37,490 bases of DNA from a virus: the IMG/VR virus record IMGVR_UViG_3300045988_166160; one strand, given 5' to 3'. The position numbers were made by a program, and so were the translations under genes. The notes below the pieces were generated by a model. It saw only the letters and a list, made by a program, of their open reading frames with translations. It was not told the DNA's origin and did not search any database. Positions 29,429-37,314 of the stretch are shown piece after piece; the stretch's first letter is position 1; each line of letters opens with the position of its first letter.

Positions 29429-30253
29429 CTACTCTTTTAACTCTTCAACTTCTTGTACTGGTTCTGTATATTCTACTTCTTCTATTACTTCTCCAGCTTC
29501 AAAATCTATTTCCATAGTATCTTCATTTAAAATACTTTCTTTGATTGTATTATTATCAGCTGTGTAAGCTTTTTGCATTTCTATAGATAATATTCCCCAT
29601 TTAGATAGTAAATTTCTTATAACTGTCTTTTTTGCCATACTATCAAAATCTGTTTGCCATACACCATTTTTAAAATTATATGTTTTTGAAAATTTCTTTG
29701 CATGAGCTTCCATATCTTCTTTGCTCCAATAAACTGTTTTTTCAAATCCATTTAATAATTTAAAATATCCAGCATATCCAATTACTTTATTTGACTTTCT
29801 TTCAGTAAAATCAATTTCTACTTCTTCACTTAATGGATTCCAACTTATAAGTTCTCCCTCTCTAATTTCAACTACATTTATTGCTTTATATTGCCCTGTT
29901 CTTAAAGCTAATTGAATAAATCCTTTATACCCCATTTGAAATTGAGCTTTATCCTTATAAGGTACTACCCATGCATACCCTAAATTTTTATCTACCGGTA
30001 AATCCATTGTTGCTGCTACCATACAACTTGCAATTACACTCATAGGTTCACATTTCTTTAAATTAGTATCTGAATTAACTAAATTAACAATACTACTCAT
30101 ATATTGAGGTGCTCTTTCACATAAAACTTCCTCAAATCTTTTCTTAACTGCTGGACTATCCATAAGTCCTTTAACACTATTTGCTATTGCAGGGGCTTGT
30201 CCTACTAATTCCTTCTTTGCTAATTGATTTTTTAAACTACTTGCTGTTGCCAT
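29429..30253 (-). CDS. recT: RecT-family single-strand annealing recombinase
   Basis: CEPMSVIASCMVAATMDLPVDKNLGYAWVVPYKDKAQFQMGYKGFIQLALRTGQYK is a typical RecT core. Paired with the YqaJ exonuclease upstream. Confidence 0.85.
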   Translation of the reverse strand: MATASSLKNQLAKKELVGQAPAIANSVKGLMDSPAVKKRFEEVLCERAPQYMSSIVNLVNSDTNLKKCEPMSVIASCMVAATMDLPVDKNLGYAWVVPYKDKAQFQMGYKGFIQLALRTGQYKAINVVEIREGELISWNPLSEEVEIDFTERKSNKVIGYAGYFKLLNGFEKTVYWSKEDMEAHAKKFSKTYNFKNGVWQTDFDSMAKKTVIRNLLSKWGILSIEMQKAYTADNNTIKESILNEDTMEIDFEAGEVIEEVEYTEPVQEVEELKE

Positions 30254-30255
30254 AA

Positions 30256-31164
30256 TTATTTATCCTCCTTGATATTAAATTTTCTGCTACTACTTTTTTT
30301 AATAACTTTTTCATAAATTTCTGGATAGTCTGCTTTCAACTTTTTACTATCTACCCTATTAGATGAAACCTTTTTCCAACTTAAACTATATCCAGGAGCA
30401 TATGCATACTCTGCATCTCCTATTTCAAATTTAATTTGATTTTCTAATTCCTGTATCTTATTTTCAAAGGCTTTCAATTCTTTTTTCATATCTAAATAGG
30501 TTTTTATCTTATCTTTATATTCAAAACCTAATTCTATTGCTTTATTTTCTTCTACTTCTTTATATCTCTCTTTAAGATATTTTTCTGCTGCACTTGATCC
30601 ATCTAAAGCAGGTGGTGTTTTTGATTCAACCAAACTCCAAAAGTCCTTCTCTAACTGAATAATCATTTCAATTAATTCTTCATCTCTAGGTACTTCTTTC
30701 CATATAAATTTTTGACCACCTACTAAGACTGCTATATATCCTCTATCTGCTCCTGTAACGGCTAAATAATGTTGAACTTGTAGCAAATAACTTGCTGGTA
30801 TTTCTTCATCTTCCCATTCTTTTAACAAATACTGATTAGCTGTTTTACACTCAAGAATTGCATTTTGTCCTACTATTTTTCTATCTATGTTAGCTACCAT
30901 AAAAGGATATTCTTTATGTTTATAATGCTTTCTATCTCTTCTTACTTTTAGTCCTGTTCTCTTTTCAAACTCCTTAGCAACTACATCCTCAAATATATCT
31001 CCAAAATAAGCACTTTCTGATTGCTCTTTAACCTCTGTTATAGGCTCTGTTTTTTCTATATATACTTCAAACTGTGTTTTATACTTATTAACTCCTGCTA
31101 TTGCTCCAACATCACTTCCACCAATTCCACATTGCCTTTCCTTAAGCCATTCAAGTTTATCCAT
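30256..31164 (-). CDS. YqaJ-like (lambda Exo-type) recombination exonuclease
   Basis: WLKERQCGIGGSDVGAIAG is the YqaJ N-terminus. PD-(D/E)XK-type residues occur in ...NIDRKIVGQNAILECKT. Confidence 0.8.
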   Translation of the reverse strand: MDKLEWLKERQCGIGGSDVGAIAGVNKYKTQFEVYIEKTEPITEVKEQSESAYFGDIFEDVVAKEFEKRTGLKVRRDRKHYKHKEYPFMVANIDRKIVGQNAILECKTANQYLLKEWEDEEIPASYLLQVQHYLAVTGADRGYIAVLVGGQKFIWKEVPRDEELIEMIIQLEKDFWSLVESKTPPALDGSSAAEKYLKERYKEVEENKAIELGFEYKDKIKTYLDMKKELKAFENKIQELENQIKFEIGDAEYAYAPGYSLSWKKVSSNRVDSKKLKADYPEIYEKVIKKSSSRKFNIKEDK

Positions 31165-31771: not shown

Positions 31772-32518
31772 CTAAAATAAATTCAAAATAAAATCTCTGC
31801 CTTTGCCTGTCCACTTTCTGTCATATATTATTTTTCCGTTATCCAATACATCTTGCTTAATACTAACTAAACCTAATTCAGAATACTTAGAATATAAAAG
31901 CCAAGTTTTATTTTGCTTATACTGTATCTTCTTTTCTGACAATAAATTATTAAGCTTTGTAGCACTACTTAACCCTAATTCCTTAGCAATTTCTGATGTT
32001 GTGTACAACTTATTTTGATGTACTAGCTTGTCCCTTTGCTTCTCTGCTTCTAACCTTGCAGCTCTTTCCTCTTTTAATTTTGTTGCTGCTGCTATAAGTA
32101 AATCTGGATTATCTAACAATTCATCTGTTGCATACATTCCGTATTTTCTCATGCTTGGTAATACTTCTGTCGCTAACCACATTTGAAACTTTTTAGCAAC
32201 ATCATTATTTGCTTTCATTCCAAGTAGATAAAATAAACTTTCTGGAATGTAATCATCTTTCCCCACAAGTGGAGAATTTCCAAACTCACTAATAAATCCA
32301 TTAATCCTCTCCCATTTAGGATATTTTTTATTATTTTTAATTTGATACCAACCAAAGCCTATAGCTGTATCTTCTGCATTTAAAGAAATACTTCTATCTT
32401 CATTTTTAATTGCTCTTACTTCAAGTTCTAATTCTTCATTAATGAATAATTGAACTCCTTCTTTTTTTTGATATTTTACATTTTCCATCTTTTTATCCTC
32501 CATTATCTTTATATTCAA
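31772..32518 (-). CDS. Phage antirepressor (Bro-N/AntA-like N-domain plus KilAC C-domain)
   Basis: LFINEELELEVRAIKNEDRSISLNAEDTAIGFGW is Bro-N-like. The C-terminal TTSEIAKELGLSSATKLNNLLSEKKIQYKQNKTWLL is KilAC-like. Confidence 0.75.
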   Translation of the reverse strand: MNIKIMEDKKMENVKYQKKEGVQLFINEELELEVRAIKNEDRSISLNAEDTAIGFGWYQIKNNKKYPKWERINGFISEFGNSPLVGKDDYIPESLFYLLGMKANNDVAKKFQMWLATEVLPSMRKYGMYATDELLDNPDLLIAAATKLKEERAARLEAEKQRDKLVHQNKLYTTSEIAKELGLSSATKLNNLLSEKKIQYKQNKTWLLYSKYSELGLVSIKQDVLDNGKIIYDRKWTGKGRDFILNLF

Positions 32519-32750: not shown

Positions 32751-33032
32751 TTAGCTTCCAATATTTTTTCTACTATCTCCTTCTTCAATTGCTTTCTTTC
32801 CTCTAAATTCATACTTTCCTCCTACTTTTATAAAATCTTCTTCTGTCCAACCCCTTATCTTAAAAATCTCTGTTGCCCATGCTTCTCCGAAAGTAATTTC
32901 CAAAGCATTAACTAATCCTTGATAATATCTTTGTGAAATTTCTTTTATCTTTTCTGGATCTTCTACTGGGTTGATACAAACGGCCTTAAATTTACTTCCT
33001 GGTATTGTAAAAACTTCTGTTCCTAAACCCAT
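32751..33032 (-). CDS. Hypothetical early protein
   Basis: ORF downstream of the cro-like gene. No motif recognised. Confidence 0.45.
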   Translation of the reverse strand: MGLGTEVFTIPGSKFKAVCINPVEDPEKIKEISQRYYQGLVNALEITFGEAWATEIFKIRGWTEEDFIKVGGKYEFRGKKAIEEGDSRKNIGS

Positions 33033-33070
33033 AGCTTACCTCTTTTAAATTTTTTATTAACATATGATAT

Positions 33071-33334
33071 TCAAATTTCATTGGTTTGTTCATTTTCTAT
33101 TTCCCTATACTCTAAGCTTTTTGTATTCATTTTGAATACATTGTTTTTAAAAAAAATTTCTTCTATGCTGTATCCAAATAATTTTGCTAAAGAATTTGCT
33201 TCCATTAAACTAAATTCTCTTTTCCCATTTTCTTTATTATTATAACTATTTAGGCTTATTCCCAGGAATTTTGCTAAATCTTCTTGCCTTAAACCCTTTA
33301 CTGCCCTTAAAGCTTTAATGTTTTGTGTATACAA
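33071..33334 (-). CDS. Cro-like XRE-family HTH regulator
   Basis: NIKALRAVKGLRQEDLAKFLGISLNSYNNKENGKREFSLMEANSLAKLFGYSIEEIF is a Cro/C1 HTH. The gene is divergent from the repressor gene and preceded by AGGAGG. Confidence 0.85.
   Translation of the reverse strand: MYTQNIKALRAVKGLRQEDLAKFLGISLNSYNNKENGKREFSLMEANSLAKLFGYSIEEIFFKNNVFKMNTKSLEYREIENEQTNEI
33123..33139. promoter_or_regulatory. Distal operator copy (perfect palindrome gtattca-ttt-tgaatac) inside the 3' end of the cro-like gene
   Basis: Same motif as the intergenic operators, with exact 7+3+7 symmetry. Confidence 0.6.
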
Positions 33335-33357
33335 CTATTTTCCTCCTTTCAATTAAG

Positions 33358-33374
33358 GTATTCATTTTGAAAAC
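33358..33374. promoter_or_regulatory. Operator copy (gtattcattttgaaaac; one good half-site) downstream of the cro promoter
   Basis: Shares TATTCATTTTGA with the perfect sites. Confidence 0.5.
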
Positions 33375-33387
33375 ACCTTATGTTTAT

Positions 33388-33416
33388 ATAATAGTATTCA
33401 TTTTGAATACTGTCAA
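33388..33416 (-). promoter_or_regulatory. Near-consensus sigma-A promoter for the cro-like/early operon (TTGACA-17 nt-TATTAT)
   Basis: The minus strand reads TTGACA gtattcaaaatgaatac TATTAT. The 17-nt spacer is exactly the palindromic operator. Confidence 0.7.
33393..33411. promoter_or_regulatory. Central operator (perfect palindrome agtattca-ttt-tgaatact)
   Basis: Has 8+3+8 perfect symmetry and occupies the spacer of the cro promoter. Confidence 0.7.
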
Positions 33417-33432
33417 CACTTTTTTTCATAAA

Positions 33433-33449
33433 ATATTCATTTTGTGTTA
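33433..33449. promoter_or_regulatory. Operator copy (atattcattttgtgtta; one good half-site) on the repressor side
   Basis: Shares TATTCATTTTG. Lies just upstream of a possible repressor promoter (TTAACA 33456-33461, 16-nt spacer, TACAAT 33478-33483). Confidence 0.45.
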
Positions 33450-33556
33450 TTTTTTTTAACATTGTTTTCAAATCGTGTACAATATATATAAATCGAAAAT
33501 ATTTAACGATTTTTAAATTGATATTTTAGAGATACTAATTAATATGGAGGTTTTTA

Positions 33557-33943
33557 TTGATTATGGGAACATTCGGAGATAGATTAAAGGAATTAAGACT
33601 AGAAAAGGACCTTACTCAACCAGCTTTCGGAAAAATTTTTAATGTTGAAAAAGGCACTGTATCTAATTGGGAAAATGAAAATAGATTCCCTGATAAGAAC
33701 ACCTTAAAAGCATTGGCAGATTATTTTGATGTTTCTCTAGATTATTTACTAGGAAGAAGTGATATTAGAAAACCACTAAATATAGATCCATTATTTCAAG
33801 GTGCTGGTGGAGAAAAATTTTCTGAAGCTGTTGAAACAATAGCCGCTCACTTAGAATCTAAAGATAAAGAAATTACACCAAAGAAAATGAAACTACTTAA
33901 AAGTTATATAGATACTTTATTTGATGATTTTGATGATGAATAG
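33557..33943 (+). CDS. CI-like / ImmR-like HTH repressor (no peptidase domain)
   Basis: FGDRLKELRLEKDLTQPAFGKIFNVEKGTVSNWENENRFPDKNTLKALADYFDVSLDYLLGRSD is a Cro/C1 HTH, and there is no S24 LexA-like domain. The start is TTG at 33557 (6 nt after GGAGG) or ATG at 33563. Confidence 0.85.
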   Translation: MIMGTFGDRLKELRLEKDLTQPAFGKIFNVEKGTVSNWENENRFPDKNTLKALADYFDVSLDYLLGRSDIRKPLNIDPLFQGAGGEKFSEAVETIAAHLESKDKEITPKKMKLLKSYIDTLFDDFDDE

Positions 33944-34008
33944 ATAAAATGTAAAGAAATCTAAAATACTTTAGATAAAATAATTTATAAAAGGGATGGG
34001 ATAAACAT

Positions 34009-34443
34009 ATGAATCCAGAAGAATATTTAGAAAGCCTAGAAAAGCGTAGAAAATGGTATTCTAACAAATCTGGTACTAATAGAAAGAGGTATCAAATTTC
34101 TTCAGTTATTAAAATAGTTCTTATAGGGCTTGTTCCTGTTGTGAGTCTAAATGAGTTTAATTATTGGTTTTATCCATATTTAGTTCCATTACTTTCATTT
34201 GGTGCAATAATAACAGAAGGAATTCAATCTATATATCAATTTAAAGATAACTGGATTAATTATAGAAACACTTCAGAAAAATTAAAAAGAGAAATTAGTT
34301 TATTTAAAACTAATTCAGGAGTCTATAGAACAACTCCTGAACAAACATCTTACAATCTTTTTGTAGAAACATGTGAAGCTATTATGTGCGAAGAAACTTT
34401 AACGTGGGTTGATAACACTTCAAATATAGAAATTACTTCTTAA
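34009..34443 (+). CDS. DUF4231 / SLATT-family two-TM protein (predicted membrane effector)
   Basis: [18 protein letters not shown] is followed by two hydrophobic helices ([13 protein letters not shown] and [16 protein letters not shown]). Then comes [29 protein letters not shown], which matches the W..YR...E.L..E......Y hallmark of DUF4231. Confidence 0.7.
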
Positions 34444-34670
34444 ACATATGGAGTTAATTCTTCATCATCATCTACAGCTTCATATGTTTTTTCAAATATA
34501 TCAGGTTTACAAGGATATTCTTCACCTCTTAAACCTGTAATTATATAATCACCAACATCAGCTTTTAATGAACCTTCTAAAGTATTTATTACTAATTCTT
34601 TATCGGTTTTATAAGCTGTTATTATAACTGGTTTTTTTCTATATTTTTTTCTTTGTACCAATTCTATCAT
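34440..34670 (-). CDS. Small PGDYG-like phage protein, antisense-oriented inside the cargo cassette
   Basis: [12 protein letters not shown]...[37 protein letters not shown] matches the PGDYG-family pattern. The SD abuts the ATG, so TTG at 34661 is an alternative start. Confidence 0.55.
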
Positions 34671-34721
34671 CTCCTATTTAACTTTATTTATTAATTATAC
34701 ATTAAAGGAGTGAATACATAA

Positions 34722-35150
34722 ATGATATATAAACTTTTTATTAGCCATGCATGGAAATATAATGAACATTATGACAATCTAGTAAATAAATTAAATTCTT
34801 ATGAAATTAGTAGCAATTTTAATTTTATGTGGTATAACTACTCTGTACCAAAGGAAAAACCATTACTTGATCCTGACTCCCCACACAGCAATGCTAAACT
34901 AACGGCTGCACTAGATGAACAAATTAGACAAGCTTCTTGTGTCTTAATTATTGCAGGCATGTATGTACCATACAAAAAATGGATACAAAAGGAAATAGAC
35001 TTAGCTAAAAAATATAATAAGAAGATTATAGGTATTAAATTATGGGATTCAGAAAGAGTTCCTATAGATGTTCAAATTGCTGCTGATGTTATGGTAGGAT
35101 GGAATACACCTACTATAGTAAAATCGATAGAAAATCTAGTTGGAAAATAA
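34722..35150 (+). CDS. TIR-like domain protein (MTH538 / DUF1863 / ThsB-like)
   Basis: KLFISHAWKYNEHYDNLVNKL forms the beta-A strand and first helix. SCVLIIAGMYVPYKKWIQKEIDLAKKYNKKIIGIKLW...VP......VMVGW fits the ThsB-type TIR-like pattern, including W87-x3-E91. Confidence 0.7.
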   Translation: MIYKLFISHAWKYNEHYDNLVNKLNSYEISSNFNFMWYNYSVPKEKPLLDPDSPHSNAKLTAALDEQIRQASCVLIIAGMYVPYKKWIQKEIDLAKKYNKKIIGIKLWDSERVPIDVQIAADVMVGWNTPTIVKSIENLVGK

Positions 35151-35265
35151 ATAGGAAATAAATAAATTGGTACAGGTTTAATAAAGGTTAATGTTAATAT
35201 TAATATTGACTTTTATTTTTTAACTTCTAACCGAACATACATTCTAATAAGAAAGGGAAATTAAA

Positions 35266-35724
35266 ATGGAATATGAAAAACTTATGATTAAATATGATAA
35301 ACATGTAAAAATTAAAGAATTACCTTTAAAGTATGGATTTAAAGGTTTATATAAAAATAAAAAAATAATAATAGATTCTAATATAGAAACAAATAAGGAA
35401 AAGACTTGTATACTTGCTGAAGAGCTTGGACATCATTTTACTAGTTATGGAGATATAATTGACCAAAGCGATATAAGAAACGTTAAACAAGAGCTTAGAG
35501 CACGTGCCTGGGCATATGAAAGACTTGTTGGAATAGTTGATTTAATTAATGCTCATAAAGCTGGTGTTAGAGGAAGATATGAACTTGCAGAATTTTTAGA
35601 AATTCCAGAATGGTTTTTACTTGATGCTATCGAATATTATAAGAGTAAGTATGGTACATGCTATAAAATTGATAACTATTTAATATACTTCTCTCCTAAT
35701 TTTGGAATAATAGAATTTTTTTAG
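35266..35724 (+). CDS. ImmA/IrrE-like (COG2856) putative metallopeptidase with a non-canonical motif
   Basis: Size, position upstream of int and ILAEELGHHFTSYGD resemble ImmA anti-repressor proteases. However, the HEXXH first His is replaced (EELGH). Confidence 0.55.
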   Translation: MEYEKLMIKYDKHVKIKELPLKYGFKGLYKNKKIIIDSNIETNKEKTCILAEELGHHFTSYGDIIDQSDIRNVKQELRARAWAYERLVGIVDLINAHKAGVRGRYELAEFLEIPEWFLLDAIEYYKSKYGTCYKIDNYLIYFSPNFGIIEFF

Positions 35725-35751
35725 TCAATAATATACAGCGAGGTGATATAA

Positions 35752-37314
35752 ATGAATGTTGCTATCTATGCAAGAAAATCAAAAGCCACTAAAAAAGGTG
35801 AATCTATTTCTAATCAAATAGAACTTTGTAAAAAATATTTTCTGAATACAACAAATGAAGATGTTAATTTTCTTATATATGAAGATGAAGGTTGGTCTGG
35901 TGGAAATATTAATAGGCCCCAGTTCACTAAAATGATGAATGATGCGAAATTAAAAAGATTCTCTGCCCTTATATGCTATAGATTAGATAGAATTGCTCGT
36001 AATGTAGCTGACTTTTCTTCTACTTATAAAATATTAGAAGAAAGTAATATAGCTTTTATAAGTATAACAGAGCAGTTTGACACCAGCACTATAATGGGTA
36101 GAGCTATGATTAATATTAGTGCTACATTTGCACAAATTGAAAGGGAGACTATAGCTGAACGTATAAAGGATAATATGCTTGAGCTATCTCGTACTGGTAG
36201 ATGGTTAGGTGGTACTCCTCCTCTGGGTTTTAAATCAGTTCAAATAACAGAAAATAATAAGAGAATGTATAAATTAGAAGTTGTTGAGGAAGAAATTGAA
36301 ATAGTAAGGCTCATATATAAGCTATATCCCGAATATAAGAGCACTGTTCCCATAGCAAGGTATTTAGTCTCTAATTATATAAAAGGAAAAAATGGGGGCG
36401 ATTTTAGCAGAAATACAGTACTGCAAATATTAAAGAATCCTGTTTACTGTTGTTCTGATGAAAATGCAATAAAATATTTCGAATCTAAAGGTTCAACTCT
36501 TAATTGTAGTGAAAATAATAAATATGGTCTAATGGTCTATAATAAAAGAAAAGGTGGAAAGAAGGAAAATCCTATTGAAGAATGGATTATTGCTACCGGT
36601 AAACATCCTGGTATTATTCCTGGAGCTGAATGGGTAGAGTGTCAAAATATTTTATCAGAAATTTCAAGTAAAACATCCCCAAGAAAAGCTACTGGCAATA
36701 AATTTTTATTAAGTGGAATGTTAAAATGTTCAAGATGTGGTTCTAGTATGTGCTCTTGGAGTAGAACATCTAAAGGTATCTATTATAGAAGTTATAGGTG
36801 TGAATTAAAAAATAGATCTTCTAATAGATGTGACTCAAAAATGGTCAATGCTGATGAGCTTGAACAATTTGTCATAGATTTATGTAAAAATATTAATATT
36901 GAAGATATTATTAATATTAAAAGAACAAAAAATAATAATGCTTCATTAAAAAGAGAACTAACATCATTAAATAAAAATCTTAATGAAAATTATAAATTGC
37001 TTCAAGGCCTTATTAAAAAATTAGCATTAATAGATGATATTGATGTTCTGTCCATGATCCAAACAGAAATAAAAAAAATAAAAACTGAAAATGATAATAT
37101 TAATAAAAGAATAAATGAAATTAATATTTCTATGTTTGATGTTGAAGATGAAGAAAATAAAAAACAACTACTTTTAGAAAGTCATAAACTTTTTATAAAT
37201 ACAATTGATTTAATTGAAGATGTTGAAGCTAAAAGAAATTTAATAATGAACTTTATTGAGTATTTTACCTATGACAGCGAAACAAATGAAGTTGGATATA
37301 AACTAAGGTTGTAG
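35752..37314 (+). CDS. int: Large serine recombinase (integrase)
   Basis: The resolvase domain has VAIYARKS (Ser10 nucleophile) and YRLDRIARN. A recombinase domain follows, then a zinc ribbon (CSRCGSSM...YRCELKNRSSNRCDS) and a C-terminal coiled coil. Confidence 0.9.
   Translation: MNVAIYARKSKATKKGESISNQIELCKKYFLNTTNEDVNFLIYEDEGWSGGNINRPQFTKMMNDAKLKRFSALICYRLDRIARNVADFSSTYKILEESNIAFISITEQFDTSTIMGRAMINISATFAQIERETIAERIKDNMLELSRTGRWLGGTPPLGFKSVQITENNKRMYKLEVVEEEIEIVRLIYKLYPEYKSTVPIARYLVSNYIKGKNGGDFSRNTVLQILKNPVYCCSDENAIKYFESKGSTLNCSENNKYGLMVYNKRKGGKKENPIEEWIIATGKHPGIIPGAEWVECQNILSEISSKTSPRKATGNKFLLSGMLKCSRCGSSMCSWSRTSKGIYYRSYRCELKNRSSNRCDSKMVNADELEQFVIDLCKNINIEDIINIKRTKNNNASLKRELTSLNKNLNENYKLLQGLIKKLALIDDIDVLSMIQTEIKKIKTENDNINKRINEINISMFDVEDEENKKQLLLESHKLFINTIDLIEDVEAKRNLIMNFIEYFTYDSETNEVGYKLRL

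Follow-up and report, generated by a model that had tools for sequence, protein, structure and literature searches.

Gene content of the locus

The window analysed here is the whole of a 37,490-nucleotide (37.5-kb) stretch of viral DNA with a GC content of 28.7%, IMG/VR record IMGVR_UViG_3300045988_166160. Our subject is a cassette of three genes within it: a SLATT gene at 34009-34443 on the plus strand, a PGDYG gene at 34440-34670 on the minus strand, and a gene for a ThsB-type TIR protein at 34722-35150, again on the plus strand. The original prediction for this DNA, made from the letters alone, described the two plus-strand genes as a minimal two-gene abortive-infection system and overlooked the conserved third gene that lies between them on the other strand; the fragment that it delimited, 33944-35265, includes PGDYG. 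It also held that such a pair had not been characterised experimentally, a statement that is now outdated: in a scan of TIR systems in defence islands, TIR plus SLATT was validated as type VII Thoeris (ThsB and ThsH) by Yirmiya et al. of the Sorek laboratory in December 2025, who describe the validated systems as consisting of two genes (bioRxiv 10.64898/2025.12.03.692087). TIR and SLATT alone thus represent a known type of defence. We think it probable that a prophage here carries type VII Thoeris in a variant form of three genes, in which PGDYG is functionally coupled to the other two, with self-immunity or regulation as its likeliest role.

The SLATT gene encodes a ThsH-like effector of 144 amino acids, built from a single SLATT_1/DUF4231 module with two transmembrane (TM) helices. 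The protein scores 62.8 bits against Pfam DUF4231 (PF14015; cut-off 24.7, E=4.5e-17) and 96.1 bits against NCBIfam SLATT_1 (NF033634; cut-off 41, E=1.6e-27), while Pfam SLATT_1 (PF18181) reaches 23.9 bits, just under its cut-off of 26.3. The motif on which the original assignment to DUF4231/SLATT had partly been based, W82-x2-Y85-R86-x3-E90-x-L92-x2-E95, is present, and an alignment of 22 family members shows no variation at Y85, R86, E90 or L92. Residues 28 to 50 form one strongly hydrophobic helix and, according to a hand calculation, residues 57 to 73 form a second, weaker one that contains the conserved E70.

The assignment of the second plus-strand gene to the MTH538/ThsB family is also borne out. 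The 142-residue product matches Pfam ThsB_TIR (PF08937) with 57.3 bits (cut-off 21.2, E=2.2e-15) and the PADLOC ThsB model PDLC00418 with E=8e-10, and its nearest relative among solved sequences is MTH538 (PDB-code: 1eiw; E=2.3e-6). The FISH start (residues 6-9), the hydrophobic strand CVLIIAG (73-79) and the W87-x3-E91 pattern are all found as described. F6, S8, W87, E91 and K100 are invariant in 47 TIR homologues, and the candidate catalytic residue Glu-91 is aligned with the glutamate of “WVRYEI” in the founding ThsB of B. cereus MSX-D12, which Ofir et al. reportedly identified in 2021 as the catalytic residue. An AlphaFold2 model with a mean predicted local distance difference test score (pLDDT) of 83 matches the folds of MTH538, CMP N-glycosidases, nucleoside deoxyribosyltransferases and solved ThsB/TIR structures.

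The PGDYG open reading frame (ORF) matches phrog_419 with 83 bits and reaches 26.9 bits, against a cut-off of 27, for Pfam PGDYG (PF14083), the sole Pfam family matched by its product. The gene is antisense to both SLATT and TIR, and its stop overlaps that of SLATT by 4 bp. Its protein would have 76 residues from the first ATG and 73 from a TTG at 34661; the TTG is the more likely start because an AGGAG (34671-34675, minus strand) sits 9 nt upstream of it. This ribosome-binding site and that of the TIR gene (AAAGGAG, 34704-34710, plus strand) both lie inside the 51 bp (34671-34721) that separate the divergently oriented PGDYG and TIR start codons, a stretch too short to hold two separate promoters. 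The only terminator-like hairpin in the interval 33000-35900 (34313-34342, minus strand) is located within the SLATT coding region about 100 nt past the PGDYG stop; a PGDYG mRNA ending there would be antisense to the SLATT 3' end over about 100-130 nt.

Differences of 0.25, 0.16 and 0.57 at the three codon positions point to strong purifying selection on the PGDYG protein. Conservation of the segment as an RNA element or as a leader of the TIR gene was rejected, as third positions diverge by 0.57 against 0.16-0.25 at the other two, and Rfam returned nothing above threshold in support of such an element. The AlphaFold2 model of the protein (pLDDT 84) is a small all-beta domain of six strands with a short helix. 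It has no PDB sequence match at E<=10 and no significant match of fold in the PDB (Foldseek best E=1.3, TM-score below 0.5), and a search of BFVD with the model retrieved PGDYG or uncharacterised phage proteins only; on these grounds PGDYG was rejected as a homologue of a known anti-defence protein. One weak BFVD match, a 182-residue protein of Arthrobacter phage Qui annotated as “Nicotinate ribosyltransferase” (A0A5B8WIM2; E=7e-3, query TM-score 0.72, 18% identity), is possibly a faint hint of an NAD-related link, or else a mis-annotation.

The PGDYG family as a whole comprises 15,992 representatives at 50% clustering, in which the domain occurs alone, C-terminally extended or in tandem repeats of up to 30 copies. 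Such repeats of PGDYG-like domains are found in giant proteins (P0134 with 3743 residues, P0135 and P0138), one of which also matches Annexin; this suggests that they originated in eukaryotes or otherwise outside phages, and that the fold serves generally as a binding module. As a route to function, domain fusions proved uninformative, since the larger proteins contain only PGDYG repeats, the Annexin match and Zn-ribbons. A literature search found no paper on PGDYG and none on DUF4231 with TIR in a prophage.

Linkage of PGDYG to phage-borne SLATT and TIR genes

That SLATT and TIR genes belong together is genuine and conserved, as had been expected of homologous loci. A word-based search returned only five close SLATT relatives. 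Close relatives (65-94% identity) have the layout of the window; they come from the same kind of prophage and are not independent evidence. The IMG/VR contig UViG_3300045988_163148 is 96-98% identical to the window at the protein level. Four distant relatives of the SLATT protein (31-36% identity, 143-154 residues) are each encoded in a compact operon, in overlap with the gene for a ThsB_TIR protein of 129-140 residues, in both gene orders and among unrelated neighbours (for instance BglII-type restriction-modification, type IIG restriction-modification and DUF4062). The operon is a conserved module that recurs across unrelated contexts, namely restriction-modification islands and proteobacterial and archaeal genomes.

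In phage genomes the pair was found in two arrangements with PGDYG. In the order of the window, here called SPT, SLATT(+), PGDYG(-) and TIR(+) follow one another; in the order STP, SLATT and TIR are followed by a convergent antisense PGDYG. Linkage was sampled from three sides, with up to 80 loci per scan and with overlap between the samples. When IMG/VR was scanned with a TIR alignment and the ORFs were assigned by purpose-built hidden Markov models, 74 of the 80 viral loci carried the SPT trio, with TIRs 37-55% identical to that of the window. The trios, 79 in all with the window and its close relatives, fall into 13 TIR clusters at 70% identity. SLATT and TIR both have a median pairwise identity of 44% (minima 19% and 33%, respectively), as against 69% for PGDYG (minimum 52%), and the flanks of the trios vary (ImmA, XRE, PemK/Zeta/HicB, Mrr, tyrosine or serine integrases).

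Starting from PGDYG, whose homologues occur in 795 phage records, two temperate elements were picked solely on PGDYG homology: Staphylococcus phage 187 and the Streptococcus satellite Javan283. Both carry a SLATT protein of 144-145 residues and a ThsB_TIR in STP order, and their TIRs are barely or not detectably similar to that of the window. This SLATT type is present in 33 isolate records, which include Staphylococcus (187, X2, S-CoN_Ph18-24, SN8/10/11/13, SpT5/252, WIS42 and SP197), Streptococcus Javan phages and satellites, and Enterococcus IME197. An antisense PGDYG was found in all five of the divergent isolate examples that were fetched. The window's own architecture is seen in C. difficile phage phiCDKH01, with all genes annotated as hypothetical. 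Starting from SLATT, 61 of 64 viral loci have all three genes (40 STP, 21 SPT), and not one of the 64 has SLATT and TIR without PGDYG.

Over all samplings, the 197 fetched loci with three genes represent 110 distinct protein triplets (76 SPT, 34 STP), which form 63, 41 and 14 SLATT clusters at 90%, 70% and 50% identity, respectively, and contain several unrelated TIR clades. PGDYG is absent from each of the 21 cellular or metagenomic SLATT and TIR loci. Among the sampled loci, the linkage of PGDYG to phage-borne SLATT and TIR is therefore obligate, oriented and asymmetric. It is this pattern that appears to be new: copies in phages and satellites always come with an antisense, conserved lytic-cycle gene, and cellular copies never do.

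The comparison with PGDYG genes outside the cassette shows what is particular about those within it. Of the 80 viral PGDYG genes nearest to that of the window (61-97% identity), about 38 lie in cassettes and 42 stand alone. The stand-alone genes are co-directional with both neighbours at 34 of the 42 loci, as in lytic operons, and the same is true of PGDYG in the lytic phage SBSphiJ6 (gene 134, a long form), in a pneumococcal phage and in Staphylococcus phage EW; cassette PGDYG is always antisense. The non-cassette protein is a longer form (81-91 residues, 42-49% identical to that of the window), whereas cassette PGDYG proteins are 57-69% identical across both architectures, even though the TIRs can no longer be aligned. 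The idea that PGDYG is a fixed landmark of an integrase-proximal hotspot was rejected, as the gene sits co-directionally in lytic operons where SLATT and TIR are lacking.

Could PGDYG be a mere passenger, a conserved gene around which the cassette arose by chance once or twice and then spread as a block, with the defence itself remaining a two-gene type VII system? None of three independent samplings contained a phage-borne short SLATT with TIR but without PGDYG, both gene orders keep PGDYG antisense and convergent, and the arrangement persists with SLATT identity down to 19%, TIR identity down to 33% and GC contents of 25-56%. Moreover, PGDYG has been moved from its usual co-directional place in a lytic operon, and the 37.5-kb window holds a single copy, a second one not having been found in it. 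We therefore consider a passenger unlikely, although it would agree with the fact that about half of the closest PGDYG genes lack SLATT and TIR, that PGDYG is absent from the cellular loci, and that the validated systems are described as having two genes. Divergence of SLATT and of TIR within the trios is only weakly correlated (Spearman 0.21), which is compatible with recombination around a conserved core, and at the level of DNA only the PGDYG segment resembles other phages. As an extension of the passenger explanation, the conserved PGDYG DNA may anchor recombination events by which alleles of SLATT and TIR are reshuffled.

Another alternative assigns the function to the RNA only. In the manner of an excludon, convergent antisense transcription across the SLATT 3' end and the SLATT-TIR spacer would silence the toxic module when lytic promoters fire, and the protein would be incidental. 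The convergent 3' overlap of SLATT and PGDYG is indeed kept in about 70 of the 79 trios, the PGDYG and TIR starts are typically 11-58 bp apart, so that promoters must sit inside neighbouring genes, and just 2 of 37 representatives have a terminator-like site on the sense strand between SLATT and TIR. However, any antisense gene would serve such a purpose, yet it is always PGDYG, and under strong selection at the protein level; in the STP order, PGDYG overlaps only the 3' end of TIR and is not antisense to the intercistronic spacer. An RNA-only function is for these reasons quite improbable.

Relation to type VII Thoeris and possible role of PGDYG

Three type VII TIRs were shown to produce canonical cyclic ADP-ribose (cADPR) upon infection, cADPR is toxic to cells that carry the system, and the SLATT protein was modelled as a membrane-spanning oligomer with positively charged cADPR pockets between the protomers (bioRxiv 10.64898/2025.12.03.692087). 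The original prediction had reasoned that a SLATT protein of this size has no room for a ligand-binding domain and that its coupling to the TIR would have to be direct or of an unknown kind. With cADPR modelled between protomers, this step is unnecessary (bioRxiv 10.64898/2025.12.03.692087). The broader proposal of a TIR signal generator acting with a membrane effector in abortive infection is, by analogy with type VII, the best-supported mechanism.

For sequence comparisons, TIR domain sequences were taken from Table S1 of the preprint (bioRxiv 10.64898/2025.12.03.692087), and the validated locus was recovered from a genome of Pseudohongiella whose TIR is identical (100%). The TIR of the window is 41% identical (40.7%, E=4e-30) to the validated ThsB of Pseudohongiella nitratireducens, whose ThsH is a 294-residue SLATT_3+SLATT_1 fusion that overlaps the TIR stop. 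The SLATT protein of the window matches the same Pfam models as this ThsH, and it is homologous over its full length (E=1e-14 to 1e-18) to SLATTs of 141-160 residues in Enterovibrio, a Methylococcales symbiont, a Nitrospirota metagenome-assembled genome and Desulfobacter, which stand beside TIRs 58-69% identical to the validated ThsB.

The STP cassettes are connected with type VII through Bacillus. The Bacillus type VII TIR cluster of the preprint, which includes the validated, cADPR-producing protein of B. licheniformis SCCB 37, falls within the clade of STP-cassette TIRs. The TIR of B. nitratireducens BM02 is 81.5% identical to that of viral locus L277, and the B. licheniformis TIR shares 43-47% identity with several STP TIRs; the viral loci with TIRs 43-81% identical to the Bacillus cluster have SLATTs of 144-152 residues and PGDYG. 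Because the tested TIRs belong to the cassette clade, the native loci of the Bacillus type VII systems probably have a neighbouring PGDYG, judging from sequence relationships. Those parts of the preprint's text and supplements that were covered here do not mention PGDYG (bioRxiv 10.64898/2025.12.03.692087). Three of the four Bacillus type VII candidates showed no defence (Table S2, bioRxiv 10.64898/2025.12.03.692087), and two of these three, BM02 and P003, belong to a TIR clade whose viral relatives (L277, L268 and L274) have an adjacent PGDYG.

The window pair thus shares with type VII Thoeris both domain families, the presumed logic and a conserved, candidate catalytic glutamate. It differs in that the phage genes are split (SPT) or followed (STP) by an antisense PGDYG, so that in the window TIR and effector are not adjacent and the 278 bp between them are filled by PGDYG; in that the effector is a single 144-residue SLATT_1 module as opposed to the fusion of Pseudohongiella; and in that the cassette sits in the lysogeny module of a prophage. 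Thoeris types I, II and IV likewise use a ThsB-family TIR as infection-triggered signal generator, with 3'cADPR or histidine-ADP-ribose (His-ADPR) as signals (bioRxiv 10.64898/2025.12.03.692087). Their effectors are SIR2-SLOG ThsA, TM-Macro and caspase-like proteins, respectively, and neither the ORF list nor family scans revealed a SIR2/SLOG, Macro or protease effector near the window TIR. SLATT and other two-TM membrane effectors were reportedly predicted by Burroughs et al. in 2015 in the cyclic-oligonucleotide-based antiphage signalling system (CBASS) and related systems, in which a SLATT effector is proposed to oligomerise on a nucleotide signal and kill the cell (summarised in bioRxiv 10.64898/2025.12.03.692087). 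Here the signal generator is a TIR: no CD-NTase/SMODS or pyrimidine cyclase, as in CBASS or Pycsar, was found adjoining the effector, whose neighbours are the repressor, PGDYG, TIR, ImmA and integrase genes.

We envisage the following course of events. In the lysogen, a transcript from the repressor side would express SLATT and TIR, both lysogeny-oriented, perhaps as a single read-through message that crosses the antisense PGDYG; co-transcription is possible because both genes run in the same direction and no terminator is predicted on their strand in the interval. Upon superinfection, the TIR would sense the phage and, through Glu-91, convert NAD+ to a cyclic ADP-ribose signal, by analogy most likely canonical cADPR. 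SLATT would then bind the signal, oligomerise and breach the membrane, in analogy to its type VII counterpart, and the infection would be aborted before the invader spreads. PGDYG, as a gene of the lytic cycle, would stop the prophage's own induction from being aborted. It could do so as a protein that neutralises the signal or the TIR or SLATT proteins, or by convergent antisense transcription that silences the SLATT-TIR message, and both routes may apply.

From the linkage pattern we infer that PGDYG is functionally coupled to SLATT and TIR. Cognate self-immunity, or a regulatory function while the phage itself grows lytically, appears to be its most likely role, because PGDYG is dispensable in cells and obligatory where a phage carries the pair, faces the lytic direction, is otherwise a lytic-operon gene, and is far more conserved than its partners. 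Since PGDYG stays constant while these partners diverge beyond recognition, its target may, speculatively, be something invariant, such as the small signal molecule. A precedent for prophage-encoded abortive infection with built-in, cognate self-immunity is BstA/aba (Owen et al. 2021, PMC8585504). There, too, an element within the system's own locus spares the phage's own lytic cycle, which is the analogy that we propose for PGDYG; however, aba is a DNA element and not a protein gene, has no homology to PGDYG, and belongs to a defence with different chemistry. That PGDYG is instead a positive component of the defence, either a sensor or adaptor for TIR activation or the phage's own allele of a conserved protein whose versions in foreign phages the TIR would recognise, so as to tell self from non-self, would suit its obligate linkage to phage-borne cassettes and the near-universal presence of its homologues among lytic-cycle proteins of many phages (795 records), which makes them plausible triggers, but is very improbable given that cellular type VII systems defend without PGDYG, that its antisense lytic orientation argues against co-expression with SLATT and TIR in the lysogen, and that it is too conserved (median 69%) for allele-specific recognition.

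A self-immunity role would bring PGDYG close to the anti-Thoeris proteins. Tad1 and Tad2 (DUF2829) are signal sponges and Tad3 binds ThsB (PDB-code: 9b7d); all are small lytic-cycle proteins of phages, and a role of this kind would agree with the occurrence of PGDYG in the lytic operons of numerous phages. We put forward tentatively, as possible rather than probable, that short-form PGDYG is a cognate self-immunity factor and that the wider lytic-operon family is an unrecognised family of anti-Thoeris or anti-TIR-signalling proteins. Tad1 and MoTad2 leave type VII unblocked; the cADPR branch, types VII and VIII, is present in about 2% of genomes altogether (bioRxiv 10.64898/2025.12.03.692087). 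PGDYG might act as a sponge or an enzyme for canonical cADPR and would then counter a branch beyond the reach of Tad1 and Tad2. The cassette bears on how a prophage survives its own abortive-infection system upon induction, and on what, if anything, phages use against the cADPR branch. It is available in tractable isolates, namely C. difficile phiCDKH01, S. aureus 187 and X2, Enterococcus IME197, and streptococcal Javan phages and satellites.

Several observations weigh against a type VII variant with a built-in self-immunity gene. The SLATT protein of the window is half the size of the 294-residue Pseudohongiella ThsH, and a direct pairwise comparison of the two gives no significant match (BLASTP E=0.057; hhalign probability 2%). 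With the published type IV (His-ADPR) TIR of E. coli 328, the window TIR shares 41.5% identity, as against 40.7% for type VII, and it is closer still (47%) to TIRs with a “3TM” partner. The attempt to derive the signal molecule from TIR similarity was abandoned for this reason; the TIR clade does not dictate the signal, and type VII is indicated by the SLATT partner alone. Cellular type VII systems provide defence in the absence of PGDYG, and phage TIRs with 3-TM partners have no PGDYG nearby, so that not every phage-borne TIR system needs it. The PGDYG domain family is both very large and general, so that a function specific to defence need not be assumed. In PDB sequence and fold searches it did not resemble Tad1, Tad2 or Tad3, which we take to be among the solved structures there. 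Promoter-like sites in the window are not above chance (14 against a shuffled expectation of 20.3) and the terminator-like hairpin after PGDYG is not conserved (6 of 37 representatives), so that the proposed transcript architecture of the cassette gains no support from them. Finally, we found no experiment on the SLATT, PGDYG and TIR architecture.

TIRs of the same kind are also combined with other putative effectors. Homologues with 44-57% identity to the window TIR (L006 and L007 of Brevibacillus agri, L008, L009 and L010, and L011 and L012 of Rhizobium) are accompanied in one case by TPR-S and a second TIR, TIR_2, beside a type I restriction-modification system, and in others by a TrkA_N-RyR protein or an “8xMP” protein; a six-gene Rhizobium locus combines such a TIR with SLATT_3, two CAP12-PCTIR TIRs, TPR-S and YuaX. 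The association of one TIR clade with many effectors is the same pattern that the preprint describes for Thoeris. Two phage TIRs of this clade from IMG/VR (L104:4390-4911 and L128:3558-4004) have no SLATT; instead, their genes overlap, within an operon, with those of 3-TM proteins about 150-170 residues long, an arrangement that resembles the untested “3TM” configuration of the preprint.

Lysogeny context and neighbouring genes

The SLATT and TIR genes lie within the lysogeny-direction block of a temperate phage, because they are on the plus strand together with the repressor, protease and integrase genes, and elsewhere in the window the phage genes are on the minus strand. Directly upstream of SLATT is an XRE/CI-like repressor gene (33557-33943, plus strand; HTH_3 41 bits, Phage_CI_repr 22.1 bits, phrog_8), preceded by a gene for a Cro-like helix-turn-helix protein on the minus strand (33071-33334). 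Downstream of TIR are genes for an ImmA/IrrE-like metalloprotease (35266-35724, plus strand; phrog_87 131 bits, with Peptidase_M78 at 21.8 bits just below the cut-off of 22) and for a large serine recombinase that serves as integrase (35752-37314, plus strand; Resolvase, Recombinase and Zn_ribbon_recom domains). An XRE repressor and an ImmA/IrrE-like metalloprotease are usually adjacent as an ImmR/ImmA pair; in the window, the three-gene cassette splits the repressor from the protease. ImmA is upstream of SLATT in 6 of 36 representatives of the other trios. Around the trios, 50 of 53 integrase genes, of the tyrosine and the serine type, are downstream on the strand of SLATT and TIR.

In Enterococcus IME197 (L165) the cassette lies beside an annotated “abortive infection resistance protein” (gp29), in phage 187 (L148) beside a bPH-SHOCT protein and ImmA, and in the satellite Javan283 (L147) beside a Fic/DOC protein, so that phage satellites carry the cassette as well. 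Accessory or defence-like neighbours of this kind fit an integrase-proximal hotspot for cargo genes.

Just upstream of the repressor, at 33523-33550 on the minus strand, there is a sub-threshold match to Rfam CRISPR-DR44 (24.9 bits, gathering threshold 35, E=0.53), which most likely represents chance or an operator-like inverted repeat. Two ORFs of 274 and 302 residues at 29429-31164 (minus strand) read like a recombination pair, and the gene at 31772-32518 (minus strand) reads as a Bro-N/ANT-type anti-repressor, its equivalent in L001 having Bro-N and ANT domains. These early-region genes are ordinary content of a temperate phage.

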